Source: Omnitrophica bacterium GWA2_41_15
GTDB lineage: Bacteria > Omnitrophota > Gorgyraeia > Gygaellales > UBA12090
DNA: 64,000 bases
Assembly (NCBI GenBank): GCA_919902675.1
Contig: CAKKRH010000001.1
Span: forward strand, 64,003-128,002
Direction: 5' to 3'
In this document: piece after piece, positions 1,243-50,105 of the stretch
Layout: each line of letters starts with the position of its first letter
Numbering within the stretch: position 1 is the first letter of the stretch
Notes under the pieces: generated by a model
Told to the model about the DNA's origin: nothing
Seen by the model: only the letters and a program-made list of their open reading frames with translations
The model's database searches: none
Made by a program: the position numbers and the translations under genes

Positions 1243-1343
1243 TTATATAAGAAGTTGAGACCGTTGCAAAACCCTAAAAAACTCTAATCTTGAAACATTT
1301 CTGTATGAGATCCTTCGTCGGGACTTACGTCACTCCTCAGGAT

Positions 1344-1378
1344 GAGAGCGTTGAAAAGCAGGATTTTTCAACGCTCTC
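1344..1378 (+). other. Perfect 14-bp stem / 7-nt loop hairpin in the giant-gene-1 leader
   Basis: GAGAGCGTTGAAAA gcaggat TTTTCAACGCTCTC. It lies in about 150 nt of leader that the paralog at 44054 lacks. Confidence 0.6.
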
Positions 1379-1403
1379 AAGTTATAACTTCTTCAACAAC
1401 CTT

Positions 1404-4400
1404 ATGCTCCATAATCTTAACAAACTCATATCCCTCTTTATCTCCTTCTGCCTCATCCTTGAGCAGACAGCCTTTGCCCAAAGCCTAGACCTTTCCCGTT
1501 ACCTTGCCAATTCAACCAAGCCTCTCCTCCAAAGCGATAAGTTCCGCCCCTTACATCTAAGATACATCTCCTACGATAACAAAAGCAATGATTTTAAGCT
1601 GTTGTTAGACAAAGGCGATTTTCTGAAGAGCCCGCTGAAGGGACTATCCCCGCCTGCCCCGAGCAAAGCCGAGGGGCAGGGGACTGTCCCTGATGAAGCT
1701 GAAGCAAGGCTCAAAGAGGCCACCCAAGAGCTGATGAAATACTTCTTCATTGGATTGGCCTTACCCAACGAAAAGTTTTGGGTCAACCTAAGGCCGGACT
1801 CCCCCGACAATATCTTGGACCCGGACTTAGAAAAGACCGATATCGGAAGGATATTCTTAGAAGCTGACCTCCAGCTAAAAAAAGACACCTCAAGCCTTAC
1901 CTCCCCCCAGACCCCGGAAGGCAAGGCCTACTGGGATAAGCTCTACCAGAAGGCAGGGGAATTATACGGCACTGAGAATATCACTATTCCCACCCTAACC
2001 CGTCCCTGGATAGTCCCGGATGAAATCATTCTTAGGGAGTCTCCCGATACTAGCGCCTACATCTATAAAGCCACCTTAAAAGTGATGCTGGAAGAAGACT
2101 ATCTTAAGGGTTATCAGCCTTCAGCCTTCAGCTCTCAGCAATCTAGTCCAAACCTCCAACCTTTAACTTCTAACTACAACTTTTCCGATCCTAGGCTAAA
2201 AGAGCTAAATCAGTATTCTACCCAGTTAATCAGAGAAACCATGATCCCTAAACTTACCCGGGAGATCAACTCCTCCAGGAGATACGCTCCACTAAGACAA
2301 GTCTACTACTCTTTGATCTTAGCCCAGCATTTTAAAAAGAAGTTTATAAACAAATCCGGGCCCTATTCAAGCCTTATGGATTCAAGAGATCTCACTAATT
2401 TAACCTCTCCTGAACCCTGGGATAAGCGGACTTACTTTAAGGAATATCAAAAATCTTTCCAGGAGGGTGAATATAATCTCAAAGCCAGTCAGTCCACGAC
2501 CTATGGTCAGGTTATCCGCAGGTATATGAGCGGGGGAGTGGAACTGGGTAACGGTGGTTCTTCATCTCTGATTATTTCGGCGAAAGATAACAGAATTATA
2601 AATCATCCCGGGATATTAAAGGTTAGCAGTGCTATATTGCCCGGCGACCTTAAGGCGCTTGGCAGGCCAACCAGCAGTCCGGCGGTAGAATATGTGTCAA
2701 AATCTAAGGATTTGCAAATTAGCGATAATCCTAAAATTAAACGAATCTGGGGTGAGATGGTTGAGGAGAACCTAAAACTATATAAATTTGCTCAGGAATT
2801 AACCAAGCTTACCGGTGATTATAACTTTATTAATAAATTCCCTGATGAGGATCTGAATAATCTGCGCGTGTTCTATAATAGCCTGAATGAAAAAGATCAG
2901 GTTTATAATTTAGGTTTTATTACTTTTAATAGCGGCATAGGAAAAAGAAGCGGTTCACAATTAGCCGCACGGTTTAAATTCAACCTCATGTTTTTAGCGA
3001 GCATGGTGAATGCTAAAATAGAGCCTGCTGATATTTTTAATAAAGAAAGGAACAATACTTTATTGGATGATAAGGATATGGAAAAGATTGCTTCCGGAAG
3101 GAAACTTAAAGAAGGTGAAGAGCTTCACTATTTATGGAGACATTTTAAGGCAATGAGTGATATTGTCTGGAAGGGAGTTAATAAAAATAAAGTTGATAAA
3201 TTCTTTAGAAGATTTGAGGATTTGCTGGATATTTTTCAGCAAGAACGCCAGTCGTATGATGAGATCGCGCGGGTTCGCCATGCAGGAGAAAAACCATATA
3301 TGGCAATTTTAAAGCAATATCAAAGTCAGATTCCTGAGCTTATTAATTCTGATTCTCCGAGACAATGGATTGAGCGGCAAGAATTAGTTGGGCCAATCAC
3401 CCCTGAAGGAAAAATAGGGAATATAGGGGATTTTCCTAATCCGCGCTTACCGGGTGAATCTATGGGAAAGGTGAGAAAATTCAGGCTTCCCGATGGCCGG
3501 GAGGTTTACGCTAAGCGAGTTAATCCTTTACGCGCGCGATATCCTGAGGAAGAAATTATGATTTCGCTGGAAGTTGATAAAAGCTTAAAGAAGATCAGCC
3601 CTTATTTTGGCGTGCAGGAGTTTATCGGTATTGTGTATGACCATGGGGCTTTTTACTTATTGTCCCTGGCTATCACCGGAGAAAGATATTCGCCAGATAA
3701 AGAAGAAGCGAATGATCCATACCAATTTAAAGCGGAGGTCGAGAAAATTCTAGTGCCTTTAGGTTTGGGCGATATTGAACATTTATTTATTTATAAAGAC
3801 GGAAATATTCATTGTGTGTTCTTAGATTTTGAAACGTTTCCTTATCATTCAGCCAAAGAAGAGAATAAAGCCACGGAAGCCCTTAAAAGCAGTTTGTCAT
3901 TAGGAAGTGACAGAGAAGTCGGAGTGAGGAATATCGTTTCTTCGGCAACTGATGGCGATTCAGGTGAGTTAATTTTTAAAGGTTTTGAAGGTGAGTCTAA
4001 AGCGGAAATATTAACTAAGGTAATTGGATCGCTTCAGAAAACAGCAAAAGAAATAGAAAAAGCAGGAAAAGAGATGGAGGGTGTAGAAAATGAACAAGTA
4101 AATATTTTTGAAAGATATAAAGCATTTAAGGAGGAGATAGAAACCAATCCGAAATTAATAAAGGAAAAGATAGAAAAATTTGGAGAATTGTTGGATAAGT
4201 TTAGCGCGGAGGTGAGAAACATAGTGAAAAATAACAACAACAATGAAGAAAAAGTGTTTTTTTCAGAAGTATATGTTTCTGTATTTTACGATTTAATAGA
4301 TAAAATTAACAAAGCTAGGTGGTACCCGCATTATATTGAATATGGAGCGAAGGTGGATAACTTCATAAGGGTGATGGACGCTTATATAAAATTATTGTCA

Positions 4401-5639
4401 GATATTCAAAGCCCGGAGAAAATTGAGGAAAAATATGCAGAAAGGATGGCTCACCGATTGGCTGAGTCAGTGGGTGAGCCGAAATTGACCTATCGGTTAT
4501 TAAAAGAATACAACAAACTGCCTCAAGAAGAAAAATCATCCGCTATCCCTGGGCAAATAAAAGAAGCAGAAATAGAGGAGATATTAAAGAACTTTCCTTT
4601 AAATAACCCTGATTGGTTGGGCGGGAAATTAAAAAATAGAATAGCAGAGGATTATGGGAGGCTTTCTGTGCTTGAGCCGATTATTGCTGATCAGTATGGC
4701 CAATCGAATGATTTCTTGCGTTTACCCGATGAAACGATGGATAATCTTAAGGCGCAGTTTAAGGAAAAAGCAAATGAATACTTTTATCTGCCGATAATAA
4801 CTAAGCATTGGATAAAGGTATTAACTTATCAATATTGGGTAAATAGTTATAATTATAAGGTGATTATTGCTAAGAAGTCGGCTTTAGAAAAATCGCTTAA
4901 TTATACGTATAGGGATATTGTTGAAGGTAATGATGATATCTTGCTTTTATGGGAATTTACCTTAAGATCGGAGAATAATCCGCCTACCATAATTCTGGAA
5001 CAACAGGGACTTTATAAAGGGTTGAGGAGGCAGGGATTTATCTCTGAGGCGTATCCCTTGTTTGTTCAAGGCTTAGCTGAGAAATTTCCAGGATGGCAGG
5101 TGGAGGGAGAGTTTGAAAATCCTGAAAGACATGAAAACCCTCCCGCGCTTGTTCTTTTTAAGAACTATTTTCTTGATCCACAACCATTAGATGCAAGAAA
5201 AGACGAAGTGCCGGATTACACAGAACCTGCAATATGGAAGGCGAGAATACCGCCATTTAATCCTCCCTCTTCTCCTGTAAACAACCCCGGAGGTATAGAC
5301 TTGAGCGCCTTGCCCGTTACTATTCAATCCGCTTTAAACCAGCCTTTGACGGCCAATATGCCTATGGCCGGCTCAGCTTTAAATCTCAACCTTAATTTAG
5401 ATAAGGAACTCCGGGATATCCAGGATATGCTTAATGCCGGGATTATGCCTGCAAGCGAAAGGATTAGAGAATATGCCTTGGCCTCCTCATCCCTAAAACC
5501 GGAAGACCACAGCCGGGAAATTGACCGGCTGTTGGGCTGTATTGCCGATATCTTCCGCTTGGAGGAGGAAAAGGCCAAACCCACCCCCCAGGCCTTAAAA
5601 GACGCGCTTATTCTGTTGGAATCGGATCTGGCCGCCTAA
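1404..5639 (+). CDS. Giant exported multidomain protein, paralog of 44054..47620 (shared N and C modules; centre has kinase-like and GNAT-like regions)
   Basis: Long ORF 1290..5639. I moved the start to ATG 1404 because the paralog starts at the equivalent Met (MLHNLNKLISLFISFCLILEQTAFA/QS versus MSTRLIKLISSFLSFCLIFEHGVFA/QS, both signal-peptide-like). The alternative start is TTG 1290. Confidence 0.85.
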   Translation: MLHNLNKLISLFISFCLILEQTAFAQSLDLSRYLANSTKPLLQSDKFRPLHLRYISYDNKSNDFKLLLDKGDFLKSPLKGLSPPAPSKAEGQGTVPDEAEARLKEATQELMKYFFIGLALPNEKFWVNLRPDSPDNILDPDLEKTDIGRIFLEADLQLKKDTSSLTSPQTPEGKAYWDKLYQKAGELYGTENITIPTLTRPWIVPDEIILRESPDTSAYIYKATLKVMLEEDYLKGYQPSAFSSQQSSPNLQPLTSNYNFSDPRLKELNQYSTQLIRETMIPKLTREINSSRRYAPLRQVYYSLILAQHFKKKFINKSGPYSSLMDSRDLTNLTSPEPWDKRTYFKEYQKSFQEGEYNLKASQSTTYGQVIRRYMSGGVELGNGGSSSLIISAKDNRIINHPGILKVSSAILPGDLKALGRPTSSPAVEYVSKSKDLQISDNPKIKRIWGEMVEENLKLYKFAQELTKLTGDYNFINKFPDEDLNNLRVFYNSLNEKDQVYNLGFITFNSGIGKRSGSQLAARFKFNLMFLASMVNAKIEPADIFNKERNNTLLDDKDMEKIASGRKLKEGEELHYLWRHFKAMSDIVWKGVNKNKVDKFFRRFEDLLDIFQQERQSYDEIARVRHAGEKPYMAILKQYQSQIPELINSDSPRQWIERQELVGPITPEGKIGNIGDFPNPRLPGESMGKVRKFRLPDGREVYAKRVNPLRARYPEEEIMISLEVDKSLKKISPYFGVQEFIGIVYDHGAFYLLSLAITGERYSPDKEEANDPYQFKAEVEKILVPLGLGDIEHLFIYKDGNIHCVFLDFETFPYHSAKEENKATEALKSSLSLGSDREVGVRNIVSSATDGDSGELIFKGFEGESKAEILTKVIGSLQKTAKEIEKAGKEMEGVENEQVNIFERYKAFKEEIETNPKLIKEKIEKFGELLDKFSAEVRNIVKNNNNNEEKVFFSEVYVSVFYDLIDKINKARWYPHYIEYGAKVDNFIRVMDAYIKLLSDIQSPEKIEEKYAERMAHRLAESVGEPKLTYRLLKEYNKLPQEEKSSAIPGQIKEAEIEEILKNFPLNNPDWLGGKLKNRIAEDYGRLSVLEPIIADQYGQSNDFLRLPDETMDNLKAQFKEKANEYFYLPIITKHWIKVLTYQYWVNSYNYKVIIAKKSALEKSLNYTYRDIVEGNDDILLLWEFTLRSENNPPTIILEQQGLYKGLRRQGFISEAYPLFVQGLAEKFPGWQVEGEFENPERHENPPALVLFKNYFLDPQPLDARKDEVPDYTEPAIWKARIPPFNPPSSPVNNPGGIDLSALPVTIQSALNQPLTANMPMAGSALNLNLNLDKELRDIQDMLNAGIMPASERIREYALASSSLKPEDHSREIDRLLGCIADIFRLEEEKAKPTPQALKDALILLESDLAA
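2115..2177 (+). repeat. Nine heptamer-periodic units (63 nt = 21 codons) inside giant gene 1
   Basis: cagcctt cagcctt cagctct cagcaat ctagtcc aaacctc caacctt taacttc taactac; encodes QPSAFSSQQSSPNLQPLTSNY. Confidence 0.75.
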
Positions 5640-24020: not shown

Positions 24021-24653
24021 ATGCAAAGACGCGAAACTTTGTCAATAATCTGCTTAACTTTTTCTCTTTTGATTTTCAGCGTTATAATTCCTATTTCCCG
24101 AAACAAAGTAGATAGAGTGAAAGAAAGGAGAGAAACGTATTTTCGCAACCTATTGAGTGCACAATTTCATCAGGCCATTGGAACTATTTCAACAAATCTT
24201 TGGTCAGCTCTCGATGTCTTAAAAAAATCAAAAGGCATAGAGAATGTCGAATTAAAGGCATCTATTGAAGAAATCCAAAAGATTTATTTCGAACAGGCTG
24301 AAAATTCCGCCACCAATTTTTATTTTTTACAGACCGAGCCAGTCACAGATGATAATAAACCGGATAAAAGGCGATATAACAAAATAAAACAGGACATTAA
24401 ACAAAAATCAAAAATGCTCAACATATATTCGGACTCATTTTTAGCAGATTTTAATCAGAAGTATATTAAGGAGCTTACTTTCTGGAATCTAATTGAGATG
24501 TCGGGATATATTTTTGCCATTTTCTTGCAAATTCTCGGGGTCTGGTTAGGGCTCATAACAAAGAACAACTCTACCGAAAGCATCCTAAAAGAAATAAGAT
24601 CTATAAATAGTAGACTTAACATGTTCCAGCTTCGTAAGAAGCAGGCTCCATAA
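24021..24653 (+). CDS. Two-TM membrane protein (about 210 aa) with a helical middle
   Basis: TM1 LSIICLTFSLLIFSVIIPI and TM2 YIFAIFLQILGVWLGLI. The alternative TTG start at 24003 overlaps the upstream gene. Confidence 0.55.
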   Translation: MQRRETLSIICLTFSLLIFSVIIPISRNKVDRVKERRETYFRNLLSAQFHQAIGTISTNLWSALDVLKKSKGIENVELKASIEEIQKIYFEQAENSATNFYFLQTEPVTDDNKPDKRRYNKIKQDIKQKSKMLNIYSDSFLADFNQKYIKELTFWNLIEMSGYIFAIFLQILGVWLGLITKNNSTESILKEIRSINSRLNMFQLRKKQAP

Positions 24654-24674
24654 ATTTTTTACGAAAGTTTCTTT

Positions 24675-25463
24675 ATGAAAATATCGATATACCCTCTTCA
24701 CGAACTTGATTCAGATGTAACTCTGCCAGTAGAAATAGCAAATGGGGTTACCGTTATTTCAAATAATATCGATATTCGTAAAATAAAGAAAATAAATGTT
24801 TCAAAAGAAGATGCACATCACCTTGTTGACCCTAAATTATGCTTACAGGTTAATGAGAAGATTGTTTCTCCTGAGAAAGCGTCCATTGTTTTTATTATTT
24901 CCTGTCGCCTGCTGAAACGCACGAAAGTTTTCATACGTTATAGAGTGGATTCCTCAAGCGAAGTAAGAAAAATTAGAGATGATTATCCTTTTGTTACCTC
25001 TAGAAATGTTACAACAGAAATTAAAGGGCAAGAATTTAAGAAAATTGCTAAATTATACCTAGGATTAAATGAGTTTAAGGATATCAACAAAAGAACTGGA
25101 AATGCGGCTTATTTTCTAGGTATGGCATATAGATCAAGAGGTTGGTTAGAATCCTTAATATTTCACGTATGTGCGCTGGAAACATTAACATTGGCATCAA
25201 ATAGAGAAAGTAGTATTACGCAAAAATTTAAAGAAAGGATTCATAATTTTATTGGCTACGATAAAGACAAGCTGGAAAAAATTTATAATATACGTTCCGA
25301 ACTAGTCCATGGAAGATACAGCTATAGCTCTGCAAAGCAGAATCTAAGGTTATTTAGAATTGCCGAAGATGTTAGCAGAAGGATGTTTAAGAAAATATTA
25401 CTAAATCCAAAACATTTAAAAGCTTTCATAAATGATAGCTCTCGCATGAAATTATTTTTATAA
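24675..25463 (+). CDS. HEPN-domain protein (R-x4-H RNase motif), Apea/MAE_28990-like
   Basis: IYNIRSELVHGRY (R207-x4-H212, nt 25293..25310) in a C-terminal helical domain. The N-terminal half is unrecognised. Confidence 0.65.
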   Translation: MKISIYPLHELDSDVTLPVEIANGVTVISNNIDIRKIKKINVSKEDAHHLVDPKLCLQVNEKIVSPEKASIVFIISCRLLKRTKVFIRYRVDSSSEVRKIRDDYPFVTSRNVTTEIKGQEFKKIAKLYLGLNEFKDINKRTGNAAYFLGMAYRSRGWLESLIFHVCALETLTLASNRESSITQKFKERIHNFIGYDKDKLEKIYNIRSELVHGRYSYSSAKQNLRLFRIAEDVSRRMFKKILLNPKHLKAFINDSSRMKLFL

Positions 25464-44053: not shown

Positions 44054-47000
44054 ATGTCTACCAGATTGATCAAACTTATATCTTCTTTTCTCTCTTTCTG
44101 CCTAATTTTTGAGCATGGTGTTTTTGCTCAGAGTATAGACCTCTCGCATTATTTTGCCCATAGTCCTGCTCAAGCAATTCCCCAGAGTGATAAATTCCGC
44201 CCCTTACATTTAAGGTATATCTCCTATGACAGCCAGGCTAATGATTTCAAACTGCTCTTAGATAAAGGTGACTTTATGAAGGGACTGTCCCCGAAGGTAA
44301 CTGTCCCTGATGAGAGACTACAAGAGGAAACCCAAACCCTGATGAAATATTTCTTTATCGTCCTATCCTTGCCCAATGAGAAGTTCTGGGTCAACCTGAG
44401 GCCGGATTCTCCGGATAATATCTTAGATCCGGACCTGGAGAAGACAGACATCGGAAGGATATTTTTGGAAGCTGATGTCCAGCTAAAGAAAGACACCGCA
44501 GGAATGACCTCACCTCAAACCCCGGAAGGCAAGGTCTATTGGGATAAGCTCTATAAGAAGGCAGGGGAATTATTCGGCAGCGAAAACATCACCATCCCCA
44601 CCCTAACCCGGCCCTGGATAGTGCCCAATGAGATAATCATCCGAGAAGCCCCGGATAATGCCTATATCTATAAGGCCACCCTCAAAGTAATGCTGGAGGA
44701 AGACTATCTCAAGGGCTATCAGCCTTCAGCCTTCAGCTCTCAGCAATCTAGCCCAAACTTCCAACCTCTAACTTCAAACTACAGTTTCTCTGACCCCAGG
44801 TTAAAGGAACTTAATAAGTATTCTACCCAGCTGATCAAGGAAACAATCATCCCGAAGCTCACCTATGCGGTGAACACCTCAAAGAGATACGCCCCCTTAA
44901 GGCAGGTGTATTATTCACTGATCCTGGCCCAGTGGTTTAAACAAAAATATGGTCCCCAGTCCCCGGTCTCGGGTCTGCGGTCAGCAGAGCAAAATAATCC
45001 CTATATCAAGCTTATAGATTCCGGCAGCCTAACCTCAAACTTCCAACTTCTAACTTCCCAAAGTCCTTATTCTAAAGAGACCTACTTCCAGCAATACCAG
45101 AAGTCATTTAAGGACGGCGAATACAACCTCCAGGAGCCGGTGTATACGCCAATGGGGCAGAGTATCAGGAGGTATATAAGCGGGGGGATGCAGATAGATT
45201 GTTCTTCGGCGATTGAGGCAGGAAAAATAAAGGCTACCCTAAAGCCATTTTTCAGTAAAATATCCTTGCCGTTTTTTATTGCAGTAACCGCTATCTACTC
45301 AAGCATAGTTTTTAAAGAAAAAATTAAGCCAAATCCTAAGGTAGTAAAAGAATTGATTTCGGCAATAAATGAAAAAGGCGGAAAAATAAATTTTGCTGAT
45401 TATATGTCTATATGCCTATATGGCGATGGAGGATATTATACCAGCGGAACAGTAAATATAGGTGATGGGAGAGTTAATGGTCAGCGATATAAAGGCGATT
45501 TCAGCACTTTTCCGGAAAGTTCTCCACATGCATTCGGCTATGGCCTTGCCGAAAAGATCTATGAAATGTGGAATAATATGGAGAACCCAAACAATTTCCA
45601 GGTAGTGGAAATGGGAGCCGGAAACGGAACAACGGCAAAAATTATTTTAGAATATATTCAGCAGAAATATCCTGAATTTATGAATAGTCTTACTTATACT
45701 ATAGTGGAAATAAGCCCGGCATTGATTGAGAGACAGAAGAAGACTATGCAAGGTATGGCTTATCCTGTAAGATGGATTTTAGGATCCGCAATAGAGATGC
45801 CGTTAAAGAATGTGGTGGGCGTATTTCTTTCTAATGAGCTTCCAGATGCTTTTCCTGTTCGCTTAGTAAGAAAAGACCCCAATGACAGGATAAAAGAAGT
45901 ATTCGTGACTTATAAGAATGGGGTTTTTATGGAAGAGCTCGGAGATATTTTAGACCCAGGAATTAATAAGTATATCAATATGTTGCGAAATAACACTATC
46001 TCAAATGAGGTAAAATATTTATTTTTAAAGAATACCCCTATAAATCTAAATATGATTAAATGGCAGAAAGATATTTATGATAGCCTTAAAAGAGGATACA
46101 TGATTACCTTCGATTACGGCTACAATGGTCCTGCTGGCGCGGGAGATCTCGGTTTACGTGTATACGGCGATAAGCATAAATTTAAATTCAGAGATTCGCT
46201 TCTAAATTCGGGGGAATACATTTATACTTTACCTGGTCAATTTGATATTACGGCAAATGTAAATCTCAAAACATTGCTACAGAATGGGGAAGAAAAAGGA
46301 TTTTCTGGCAGCCAATTAATTGAACAAGGAGAATTCTTTGCGCAAATCCCCGAAAAAGTATTTAAAGGGTATTTACAGGAAAGAGCAAATCTCGCGCATA
46401 AAGATTTTTATGTTCTTACGCAAGGTAAGGATGTTCTTCCAATAGGTTCATTGCCTGCGCGACAATCATTCTCCAGCTCGGCGGTGGAGGGAGGAGAGAA
46501 GAAATTAAGGGAATTGTTATCTAAGCATCCAAAACTGAAGATAGAGTATGACCTTTTTAAAGAGTTTGGGGTTGGCCTGGGAACTAATATTTTAGAAATT
46601 GGTATTGGATCTGAGCATAGAGGAACTGTAGCGGCGGCAATGGGAGCGCATTATCGTCAGTATGAAATATCAGGGGAGATATACGGATTCTCATTCAAAG
46701 AATACATTGATTCTATTGAAATCCCAGGATACAAATATGAGTTCCCTCTTAAGAATAATTTATCCAGCCATAATGGACATGTGGGTGAGGGAACATACAA
46801 TTATATCAGAGGTGAGTTTTCGGGAGGTAATAAATCAGTATCAAATAAGATTGGAAGAGAAGGCTATGTTGAGAACAAGAGTCAAGATATAATTATAGCA
46901 ATGACGGGAGCGTTATCCGACCCTATTCCAGAATCAAACGCACACGATGTTCTTAGAGAAATGTTACGAGTGCTCAAGCCGGGAGGAATGCTCGTGGTAG

Positions 47001-47620
47001 GAACTTACGGTTTATGGGGCAAGGATATAGGGTTGAGTATGCCGCATCCTGAATTGCATGGTTATGAATTTCATAAGTTTAGGAAAGTTGTGAGCGATGT
47101 ATTGAAAGAGCCTGAATGGAGAGGAAAGGTTTTGTTCTCTCAGAGGGAAGAGTTAAGCAGGCAGGATTTTGATCATTTTTTTTCCTTTGACGTATATAAG
47201 ATAGATTTTATCAATTCGTCTCCGTTTGAAAATAACAATAGTAATACGGTTAATAGTTCGTCAAGCTCACTATTAGCAAGTAGCGACAAAGGCGGCATTG
47301 ACTTCCACGCCCTGCCTATTCAAACCGAATCCGTTGCTTCGTCTGCTTTAGGTCTTTTTTCTGCTTTGGGCGCGTTTAAAGGCGATCTTGACGCCGAATG
47401 GTCCCAGATTCAAGCCATCTTTAACTCCGGGATCCGGCCGTCTATCCAGCGTTTGAGTGAATATACCGCCGCGGCCGCCGCCAGTCCTCTGGGCGAAGGT
47501 AAAATTGATCAGGTCAGGGTTATGCTTGCTGACATCCTGCGCCGCGATGAAGAAAGTCAAAAGTCCGCTCCCGCCGAAGAATCCTGCAAGCAGCTACTTA
47601 GACTGCTTGAATCGGGATAA
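44054..47620 (+). CDS. Giant signal-peptide multidomain protein, paralog of 1404..5639; centre holds a MidA/NDUFAF7-like methyltransferase and a second class I SAM methyltransferase
   Basis: MidA-like: YMSICLYGDGGYYTSG, GDFSTFPESSPHAFG, VVEMGAGNGT, FLSNELPDAFPV (aa 430-790). Second MTase: ILEIGIGSE, LRVLKPGGMLVVGTYG (aa 815-1050). N and C modules are shared with giant gene 1. Confidence 0.88.
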   Translation: MSTRLIKLISSFLSFCLIFEHGVFAQSIDLSHYFAHSPAQAIPQSDKFRPLHLRYISYDSQANDFKLLLDKGDFMKGLSPKVTVPDERLQEETQTLMKYFFIVLSLPNEKFWVNLRPDSPDNILDPDLEKTDIGRIFLEADVQLKKDTAGMTSPQTPEGKVYWDKLYKKAGELFGSENITIPTLTRPWIVPNEIIIREAPDNAYIYKATLKVMLEEDYLKGYQPSAFSSQQSSPNFQPLTSNYSFSDPRLKELNKYSTQLIKETIIPKLTYAVNTSKRYAPLRQVYYSLILAQWFKQKYGPQSPVSGLRSAEQNNPYIKLIDSGSLTSNFQLLTSQSPYSKETYFQQYQKSFKDGEYNLQEPVYTPMGQSIRRYISGGMQIDCSSAIEAGKIKATLKPFFSKISLPFFIAVTAIYSSIVFKEKIKPNPKVVKELISAINEKGGKINFADYMSICLYGDGGYYTSGTVNIGDGRVNGQRYKGDFSTFPESSPHAFGYGLAEKIYEMWNNMENPNNFQVVEMGAGNGTTAKIILEYIQQKYPEFMNSLTYTIVEISPALIERQKKTMQGMAYPVRWILGSAIEMPLKNVVGVFLSNELPDAFPVRLVRKDPNDRIKEVFVTYKNGVFMEELGDILDPGINKYINMLRNNTISNEVKYLFLKNTPINLNMIKWQKDIYDSLKRGYMITFDYGYNGPAGAGDLGLRVYGDKHKFKFRDSLLNSGEYIYTLPGQFDITANVNLKTLLQNGEEKGFSGSQLIEQGEFFAQIPEKVFKGYLQERANLAHKDFYVLTQGKDVLPIGSLPARQSFSSSAVEGGEKKLRELLSKHPKLKIEYDLFKEFGVGLGTNILEIGIGSEHRGTVAAAMGAHYRQYEISGEIYGFSFKEYIDSIEIPGYKYEFPLKNNLSSHNGHVGEGTYNYIRGEFSGGNKSVSNKIGREGYVENKSQDIIIAMTGALSDPIPESNAHDVLREMLRVLKPGGMLVVGTYGLWGKDIGLSMPHPELHGYEFHKFRKVVSDVLKEPEWRGKVLFSQREELSRQDFDHFFSFDVYKIDFINSSPFENNNSNTVNSSSSSLLASSDKGGIDFHALPIQTESVASSALGLFSALGAFKGDLDAEWSQIQAIFNSGIRPSIQRLSEYTAAAAASPLGEGKIDQVRVMLADILRRDEESQKSAPAEESCKQLLRLLESG
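44720..44782 (+). repeat. Nine heptamer-periodic units (63 nt) inside giant gene 2; ortholog of 2115..2177
   Basis: cagcctt cagcctt cagctct cagcaat ctagccc aaacttc caacctc taacttc aaactac. Confidence 0.75.
45025..45059 (+). repeat. Second heptamer tract (5 units ACYTCYA) in giant gene 2
   Basis: cagccta acctcaa acttcca acttcta acttccc; encodes SLTSNFQLLTSQ. Confidence 0.65.
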
Positions 47621-50070: not shown

Positions 50071-50105
50071 TAGTTGGTAGTTAGAGGTTAGAAGTTGGTA
50101 GTTAG
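50071..50105. repeat. Five tandem heptamers WRGTTRG in the bioC-bioD spacer
   Basis: tagttgg tagttag aggttag aagttgg tagttag. The reverse complement (ctaacta ccaactt ctaacct ...) matches the CYAACYW units inside the giant genes. Confidence 0.75.

Follow-up and report, generated by a model that had tools for sequence, protein, structure and literature searches.

The 64,000-nucleotide (nt) stretch analysed here (hereafter the window), taken from contig CAKKRH010000001.1 of Omnitrophica bacterium GWA2_41_15, carries tandem arrays with a period of 7 nt, most of them inside open reading frames (ORFs) and one in a spacer. The question raised by this locus is whether such tracts are repeats of the DNA or of the encoded peptide, and how a repeat of this unit length is kept in genes. 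Every named homologue of the window proteins belongs to Candidatus Omnitrophota, and the array-bearing bacterium is an uncultured member of this phylum with groundwater as its habitat. In two enzyme genes, larE and mnmA, orthologous arrays share their site and length, and their units are lineage-specific and mostly perfect within each array, which is concerted evolution. The reading that we hold to be the probable one, with considerable reserve, is that these are heptanucleotide arrays similar to the STRRs of cyanobacteria (short tandemly repeated repetitive elements), made uniform by slippage or conversion, with selection on reading frame and stop codons as a filter.

An earlier note on this DNA had pointed to four period-7 tracts, located in two giant genes and in a spacer between biotin genes. 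All four are present in the sequence, and lag-7 matches, shuffles and a census agree that they are real, with a periodicity far above chance. The lag-7 self-matches amount to 35/56 at 2115-2177 (binomial p ~1e-8), more than the maximum of 33 reached by the best 56-nt stretches in 200 codon-block shuffles of the whole window, and to 35/56 at 44720-44782, likewise above that maximum. For the two shorter tracts the values are 18/28 at 45025-45059 (p ~2e-5) and 21/28 at 50071-50105 (p ~8e-8). Three additional tracts, absent from the earlier note, were found in larE, in giant gene 2 (the GTCCCCA-like tract) and in mnmA, and two of these three are cleaner than those cited before. The features are collected in Table 1.

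The larE and mnmA arrays can be compared between orthologues. In mnmA, which encodes a tRNA 2-thiouridine synthase, the window array has the identical copy number in a second assembly of the strain; related genes bear another heptamer, an 8-nt unit or no array (Table 1), and the MnmA proteins of other phyla have a 19-amino-acid (aa) loop without an array. For larE, the DNA of seven orthologues was compared in perfect register over 21 codons. All seven arrays (7/7) have five units, and four identical units occur in 4/7 orthologues (L160-L163, which are perfect). The divergence at four-fold sites among close orthologues is 0.13-0.24, yet the units differ at 2-4 of the 7 positions. The larE array aligns to solved LarE without a gap, that is, with no net insertion. 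Orthologues of LarE with 62-97% identity all have a 7-aa repeat in two copies at this site, and LarE proteins with 57% identity or less have no repeat there. In the solved LarE the variable segment of the array is presumably helical. Because near-perfect arrays differ between close orthologues of both genes, homogenisation outpaces point mutation at constant length: the array site is inherited, and the unit is homogenised in each lineage faster than point mutations accumulate. A tracking of the larE unit along the gene tree was also tried; it does not follow cleanly, and simple descent and simple replacement are both unproven. One protein of the larE and mnmA comparisons, P0249, looks recombinant.

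Table 1. Period-7 arrays of the window and of related loci, with the host genes of the window. Positions without a locus name are those of the window; percentages are identities to the window gene.
Feature	Position	Strand	Units and remarks
Array A, gene 1	2114..2145	+	TCAGCCT-type, ~4.5 units: CAGCCTT CAGCCTT CAGCTCT CAGCAAT + junction unit; encodes QPSAFSSQQS
Array B, gene 1	2146..2177	+	NAACYTY, ~4.5 units: AAACCTC CAACCTT TAACTTC TAACTAC; encodes SPNLQPLTSNY
Arrays A+B copy, gene 2	44719..44782	+	paralogous to gene 1 tract; 59/63 nt identical
GTCCCCA-like tract, gene 2	44949..44987	+	GTCCCCA GTCCCCG GTCTCGG GTCTGCG GTCAGCA; in 33-nt gap of gene 2 vs gene 1 alignment
Array-B-type tract, gene 2 loop 3	45025..45059	+	five units; overlaps 12-nt gap vs gene 1
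larE array	40390..40424	+	five units: ATCGCCA ATCACCA ATCCCCA ATCACCA ATCGCCT; encodes IANHQSPITNR
mnmA array	58064..58094	+	perfect AGTCCAC x4.4; encodes VHSPQSTVHS, hairpin between GHYAR and KDQSYFL
Intergenic array, BioC-like / BioD-BioA spacer	50071..50105	+	TAGTTGG TAGTTAG AGGTTAG AAGTTGG TAGTTAG
larE array, L160			GTTACCA x4, then GTTACCT
larE array, L161			GTCACAA x4, then GTCATTT
larE array, L162			ATCGCAA x4, then ATCGTCT
larE array, L163			ATTACGG x4, then ATTATCT
larE array, L164			GTCACAG GTCACAA GTCACAG GTCACAG, then GTCATTT
larE array, L165			GTTGCCA GTTACCA GTTGGCA GTTGCCA, then GTTACCT
mnmA array, L080-82 (84% aa)			AGCTCTC x4.4; place and length as in window
mnmA array, L085 (92% aa, 86% nt)			8-nt unit
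mnmA array, L084 (61%)			CAGTCCA; another phase
mnmA array, L083 (67%)			none; loop 21 nt shorter
ATAGTTK / TAGTTRG arrays	L009 1604-1642, 17357-17384; L046 20624-20651; L073 5066-5095, 17611-17632; L078 1928-1948; window 50071-50105
Host gene 1	1290..5639	+	1449 aa; signal peptide, ~380-aa N-terminal domain, ~110-aa C-terminal domain
Host gene 2	44054..47620	+	1188 aa; N- and C-terminal domains of gene 1 flanking methyltransferase modules (PF02636)
larE	39583..40515	+	TIGR00268, 312 bits
mnmA	57675..58787	+	NF001138, 433 bits

The excess of period 7 is not confined to these loci. A sliding-window census of the window gave 7-9 tracts at period 7, 2-4 at its harmonic 14 and 0-3 at every other period from 4 to 16. 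A sample of 78 loci from Omnitrophota genomes (1.29 Mb) contained 106 tracts of period 7, 38 of period 8 and 31 of period 6; no non-harmonic period exceeded 38 tracts apart from 7, and the shuffles gave 1-6. Pooled over the window and these relatives, near-perfect arrays number 14 at period 7, 6 at period 8 and 0-2 at the other periods from 5 to 11. About half of the 78 loci have no period-7 tract, so the trait is lineage-dependent. In a control of 370 kb from other phyla (mnmA loci with 54% aa identity or less, from mixed metagenome sources) only 4 tracts of period 7 were counted, and multiples of 3 dominate, as coding DNA should. This control showed no period-7 excess, and with the shuffles it led us to reject an artefact of chance or composition. 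An excess of period-7 tracts, as the earlier note would have it, is present in the window and in these relatives. The census also flagged a period-14 tract at 24648-24691, just upstream of an ORF that starts at 24675.

At least three head-to-tail 7-nt copies above chance were found, and many dispersed loci with period 7 over-represented among those sampled, as in the generic class of heptanucleotide long simple sequence repeats (SSRs) and STRR-like repeats. Open frames hold 6/7 window tracts (the coding fraction of the window is 0.91) and 11/14 of the pooled near-perfect period-7 arrays. The arrays occupy ORFs roughly in proportion to coding density, and spacers as well. Inside ORFs they are placed where the protein tolerates them, for instance in disordered loops, in a hairpin on the surface or in a variable segment.

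The giant genes illustrate how little the peptide is conserved. Both encode large proteins of secreted type with a signal peptide, and their N-terminal domains are paralogous (70% aa identity). As judged from the homologues found, this domain appears to be specific to Omnitrophota; it has no match in Pfam, and a fold search of its model against the PDB gave nothing with E <= 0.001. After an alignment of 33 homologues, the loop that lies between KVMLEEDYL and Y-F-DPRLKELN was taken out of 69 genomic copies. The loop is only 5 aa long (KDSxx) in 25/69 copies. Expanded loops have 11-41 aa, mostly with a lag-7 identity of 0.6-0.77, and are built of at least nine mutually unrelated heptamer families (CAGCYNT, GACGARG, AACCAGW, CAGACCR, AAATCCG, AATGGCM, AGAGWAC, CAGGGRA and CAGTCTA) and one 8-nt unit. 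The unit family of array A also fills the loop in L006, L011, L018, L046, L054, L073 and L078. In an AlphaFold model (predicted template modelling score 0.63), the predicted local distance difference test falls below 50 at residues 221-242 and 303-313 of gene 2, flanked by confidently predicted elements; these are the loops of the tracts 44719-44782 and 44949-44987, respectively. Two gene 2 tracts other than the A+B copy coincide with alignment gaps against gene 1 (Table 1).

One could suppose that selection acts on the protein, for low-complexity, disordered or heptad-repeat linkers, and that the DNA periodicity is a by-product. The predicted disorder of the tract-bearing loops would fit, as would the peptide QPLTSNY, common to several homologues of 57-64% identity, and disorder-creating tandem repeats are selected in Borg elements (PMC9879509). 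A peptide repeat, however, predicts a period of 21 nt and not of 7 nt. In addition, the peptides at one site are chemically unrelated (IANHQSP, VTSYQLP and ITDYGLR in LarE; VHSPQST vs ALSSQLS in MnmA), the same unit families occur in non-coding spacers, and many homologues have no tract. The comparisons of units in the loop, mnmA and larE largely refute this explanation, and we regard it as very improbable. Because one loop holds either unrelated 7-nt units or only 5 aa, the coding tracts are DNA-level repeats and not conserved peptides. The same loops, together with the different units at the same larE and mnmA sites, bear out the DNA-level element of the earlier note, which had named conservation as protein across homologues as the finding that would overturn it.

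The longest tract has a composite structure. Its 63 nt consist of four CAGCNNT units, a junction unit and four NAACYTY units (units 6-9), and Tandem Repeats Finder (TRF) scored just 2.7 perfect copies in it. The two 63-nt tracts, at 2115 and 44720, occupy the same position in paralogous domains and are 59/63 nt identical, so they represent one event and not two. The 21-mer AAACTTCCAACYTCTAACTTC occurs without mismatch at 44755 and 45037, with 2 mismatches at 2150, and with 3 mismatches each on the minus strand at 50077 and 50084, and shuffled sequences had no occurrence of it. A unit family common to coding and intergenic tracts, as the earlier note had seen, is confirmed by these matches. Its further claim that the element spreads is borne out in part: the 21-nt block stands in two loops of one gene and, as reverse complement with 3 mismatches, in the spacer array.

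The intergenic array begins 1 nt after the stop codon of a BioC-like gene and ends 32 nt before the start of a BioD-BioA fusion, in agreement with the flanking genes first given for it. It belongs to the reverse-complement family of array B, has TAG on the + strand and TAA on the other, and is identical in the second assembly of the strain. A scan of the whole window against Rfam at gathering thresholds gave no match, so this array is not a described RNA family. The intergenic arrays contain TAG, TAA or TGA. In the array-B tracts, the in-frame NAA reads CAA (2157-2159 and 45044-45046) and the out-of-frame ones read TAA. The intergenic heptamer family recurs in several Omnitrophota genomes, near gene ends and in both orientations (Table 1), and coding arrays often have a stop-free counterpart of it, for instance CAGTTGA in L035 at 10838. 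Read on the + strand, most coding arrays are rich in C, and the intergenic array in G and T. The fusion downstream joins a dethiobiotin synthetase to an aminotransferase (679 aa, 50138-52177), and a gene for a BioH-like hydrolase and the BioC-like methyltransferase gene precede it; the latter protein scores just below the NCBIfam cut-off.

What is required of a coding array is net preservation of the frame and no in-frame stop codon. The proposal that tracts are tolerated in ORFs when they are a multiple of 21 nt was compared with the lengths of arrays and loops and with the gaps between the paralogues, and it did not hold as a general rule: near-perfect coding arrays have 28-48 nt with a mode of 31-35 nt (4.4-5 units), larE shows no length change, and the insertions in gene 2 measure 33 and 12 nt. 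A difference of exactly 21 nt was seen in one case only, between the window mnmA and that of L083.

A mechanism in keeping with these observations can be outlined. The array would be homogenised while DNA is replicated or repaired, through mispairing of slipped strands or conversion inside the array, and selection would remove variants that shift the frame, bring a stop codon into frame or make a loop too long. Since 7 and 3 share no factor, an array would be read in all three frames and would yield a peptide with a period of 7 aa. A unit that contains a stop codon would persist in three situations only: in a spacer, in the orientation free of stops, or where its in-frame TAA has become CAA. 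Where homogenisation lapses the array would decay, and the 63-nt tract of the giant genes may be such a decayed composite of two arrays, copied with the gene duplication.

Several observations weigh against homogenisation by simple slippage or conversion, and they are given here together with the rival explanations. A single-unit slip in an ORF shifts the frame, so that homogenisation at constant length needs conversion-like events or transient out-of-frame intermediates. At the consensus level no length polymorphism was found between the two assemblies of the window strain or among the three L080-82 contigs. The four-fold identity of larE to L163 and L164 is ~0.40, which is saturated, and persistence of the array across such divergence is long for a neutral microsatellite. 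Constant length and long persistence would be accommodated by contingency loci for phase variation, in which the gain or loss of one unit shifts the frame and silences the gene until a later slip restores it. Off-on cycles predict homogenisation at a fixed, in-frame "on" length, and selection for switchability would keep the repeats perfect at conserved sites despite saturated synonymous divergence. An uninterrupted non-triplet repeat in an ORF was found in the window mnmA and in larE of L160-L163, and two of the hosts are of secreted or surface type with signal peptides. In L085, the mnmA frame changes from 0 to 1 (~500-560) exactly inside the 8-nt array (GGTCACAA x3). Omnitrophota are probably host-dependent. 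Long SSRs are associated with host-adapted bacteria and with phase variation (PMC4679880; PMC2651432).

Contingency loci such as those of Haemophilus (PMC2651432) also have perfect non-triplet repeats in ORFs, where a one-unit change shifts the frame. The arrays described here differ from them in the lack of consensus-level polymorphism in copy number or frame, in their housekeeping hosts and in their low copy numbers. No out-of-frame allele was present in 7/7 larE arrays, in 3/3 L080-82 contigs or in the two assemblies of the window strain, and the sole out-of-frame case, that of L085, lies on a contig with 11 Ns; it could be a real out-of-frame allele, the consensus of a mixed population or an assembly error. 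Moreover, mnmA and larE would be unusual targets for switching, the degeneracy of the arrays in the giant genes of surface type leaves them with little mutability, and 4-5 copies are short for an efficient switch. Phase variation is an explanation that we consider improbable. A 204-aa MnmA fragment (P0242, head of a 90% cluster) was also examined as a possible array-split gene. It comes from a 2.16-Mb contig of the same strain (99.5% identity) in which many genes are broken by indels, and it was rejected as evidence for phase variation because its mnmA differs by a homopolymer change outside an intact array.

Other observations opposed to simple slippage concern the units and the size of the arrays. 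In larE, five different units occur inside a clade of 84-92% identity and do not follow the gene tree, and both ATCGCAA and GTCACAA are met again in an outgroup (~73% identity). The same units are also found at unrelated sites or in distant lineages: CAGCTCT in the mnmA of L080 and in giant-gene loops, and CAGTCCA in the window as well as in L084 (61% identity). Closely related proteins of one 90% cluster bear different units. Simple slippage does not explain the 21-nt block at 44755-44775, which recurs identically within 45025-45059, in another loop of gene 2; other paralogues also have this block, in their loop 1 or their loop 3. The array sizes given by TRF (L002-L079 and the window) are bimodal: sizes of 14-20 nt form a background of chance repeats, the distribution dips at 21-27 nt (3-4 copies), and a mode follows at 30-34 nt. 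Simple birth and death by slippage would give a monotonic decay. Period-8 arrays gather around the same overall size (26-37 nt), an indication that the set-point lies in total length and not in copy number. Finally, YAG occurs in 18/25 long arrays vs 28/91 chance two-copy repeats.

These features, the conflict with the larE tree apart, could be produced by a dedicated or templated process that inserts or overwrites blocks of ~31-35 nt, or by ectopic conversion between arrays, with a restricted set of units and a YAG core; the size mode, which 7-nt and 8-nt units share and which holds inside as well as outside coding sequence, would fit such a process. On the other hand, no candidate enzyme, target-site duplication or inverted repeat was seen. 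Convergence of the larE units is plausible, since the recurring units differ mostly by transitions in a small state space, and a threshold for slippage, together with a bias towards contraction, could also produce the size mode. The YAG comparison was made post hoc, and after correction for 32 classes no single trinucleotide class stands out, so that this enrichment is suggestive only. On balance, templated writing seems unlikely to us. An equally doubtful but broader possibility is that the arrays form a maintained, lineage-wide system of ~31-35-nt blocks of 7- or 8-nt repeats, with YAG(T)-biased units continually rewritten at fixed sites in conserved genes, acting as reversible frameshift switches in ultra-small host-dependent bacteria or made by a dedicated templated mechanism shared across phyla. 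Two cyanobacterial repeats, STRR1 and STRR3, also contain the YAG(T) core in their units, and TAACTGA has it in its reverse complement. Slippage or conversion under frame and stop selection remains our preferred explanation, and it is with this in mind that known repeats are compared.

Bacterial heptamer repeats have been known since 1990, the year in which Mazel et al. reportedly described the STRR heptamers of heterocystous cyanobacteria. The window unit GTCCCCA is a rotation of CCCCAGT, which we take to be the unit of STRR1. One exact CCCCAGT followed by CCCCGGT lies at ~44952, and no tandem pair of CCCCAGT, TTGGTCA or CAACAGT, presumably the STRR units, was found on either strand of the window. 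As with the STRRs, short tandem 7-nt arrays occur at many dispersed loci with several unit families per genome, and they may sit at a tolerant position of a functional gene. In filamentous cyanobacteria, STRRs are described as 7-bp repeats to which no function has been assigned (PMC2670836), and their presence inside the RNase P RNA gene is attributed to Vioque 1997 in PMC2858038. The host here is Candidatus Omnitrophota and not a heterocystous cyanobacterium, and STRRs are mainly non-coding, unlike the present arrays. The resemblance drawn in the earlier note thus stands for the kind of repeat, but not for the host, the tandem units or the location. For STRRs, our literature search brought up no account of orthologous arrays whose units are homogenised lineage by lineage.

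The TAACTGA repeats known from marine Beggiatoaceae and from certain Cyanobacteria and Bacteroidetes (MacGregor 2015, PMC4679880) form arrays of 2-6 copies, with indels in 7-nt steps between close strains. Their forward orientation has stop codons, so that arrays in ORFs are only "reverse" and give 7-aa repeats, LSVISYQ (PMC4679880). Heptamer arrays, the stop-free orientation in ORFs and the 7-aa repeats are common to both systems, and the intergenic TAGTTRG / ATAGTTK resembles the reverse complement TCAGTTA. However, a single unit dominates there and many units occur here. In most cases the TAACTGA arrays stand in a single orientation shortly upstream of a start codon, whereas the present ones lie mostly inside ORFs and, near gene ends, in both orientations; and their ORF cases are at the periphery of hypothetical proteins, not internal to conserved enzymes such as mnmA and larE. 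The window has no tandem TAACTGA repeat and one single copy.

Heptamers are cited as the most abundant class of long SSRs in many bacteria, with polymerase slippage as the proposed cause (Mrazek 2007, as quoted in PMC4679880 and PMC4692102). The present arrays share with that class the over-representation of period 7, a preferred copy number (four there, ~4.4-5 here) and extensive sequence variation at conserved positions between related genomes. In Xanthomonas and Nostoc, the G-rich repeats GGGAATC and GGGGAYT can form G-quadruplexes (G4), and are intergenic and under-represented in coding regions (Rehm 2015, PMC4692102), in contrast to the arrays described here, whose occupation of ORFs follows coding density. 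No window array has four or more consecutive G3+ tracts, and 0/5 G4 motifs of the window overlap an array.

Within ORFs, the repeats of the Borg elements are the other case for comparison. In the Borg study the repeat units inside ORFs are reportedly divisible by 3; here the unit has 7 nt (sometimes 8), and a peptide repeat results only from three-frame reading. Both cases have fast-evolving, independently arising repeats that create disordered protein segments (PMC9879509). The arrays are of the generic heptamer class of STRRs and long SSRs, and are set apart by the host phylum, the units, the location in conserved enzymes and the concerted evolution at orthologous sites. Our literature search found no paper that links Omnitrophota with such repeats.

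Some other features of the host genes and genome were observed. The ~380-aa N-terminal domain has 398 confirmed copies in species-representative genomes, and one metagenome-assembled genome (JAUSCZ) has at least 13 copies, with 13 loci listed. The C-terminal modules fused to it vary (methyltransferase, HD, HEAT and phosphoglucomutase-type). Near-identical LarE proteins differ in whether they have a 28-aa (84-nt) insertion at codons 23-50 (39649-39732), which P0245 lacks; the lag-7 signal of this insertion is weak (0.36) and it was not counted as an array, but it may be an old, decayed one. The + strand carries all plausible genes of the window (1-64000), and the GC skew is positive throughout (+0.07 to +0.16). 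The second assembly, L166 (ERZ1286166 contig_28, 2.16 Mb), is an essentially complete genome of the same strain, 99.5% identical over 15.8 kb, and the indels that break many of its genes are of a kind typical of long-read assemblies.

For work on these genomes, the arrays are likely hotspots for assembly and frameshift errors, and their 7-aa periodic peptides could be mistaken for protein motifs. The arrays inside conserved mnmA and larE provide an unusually clean natural experiment, in which the codons on either side serve as an exact register and as a neutral clock. The rates of slippage and conversion, the selection on frame and the possible set-point of ~31-35 nt would be measurable from existing metagenome reads. 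Non-triplet repeats read in three frames can create and overwrite protein loops, and in this uncultured phylum new disordered segments could originate from the arrays.

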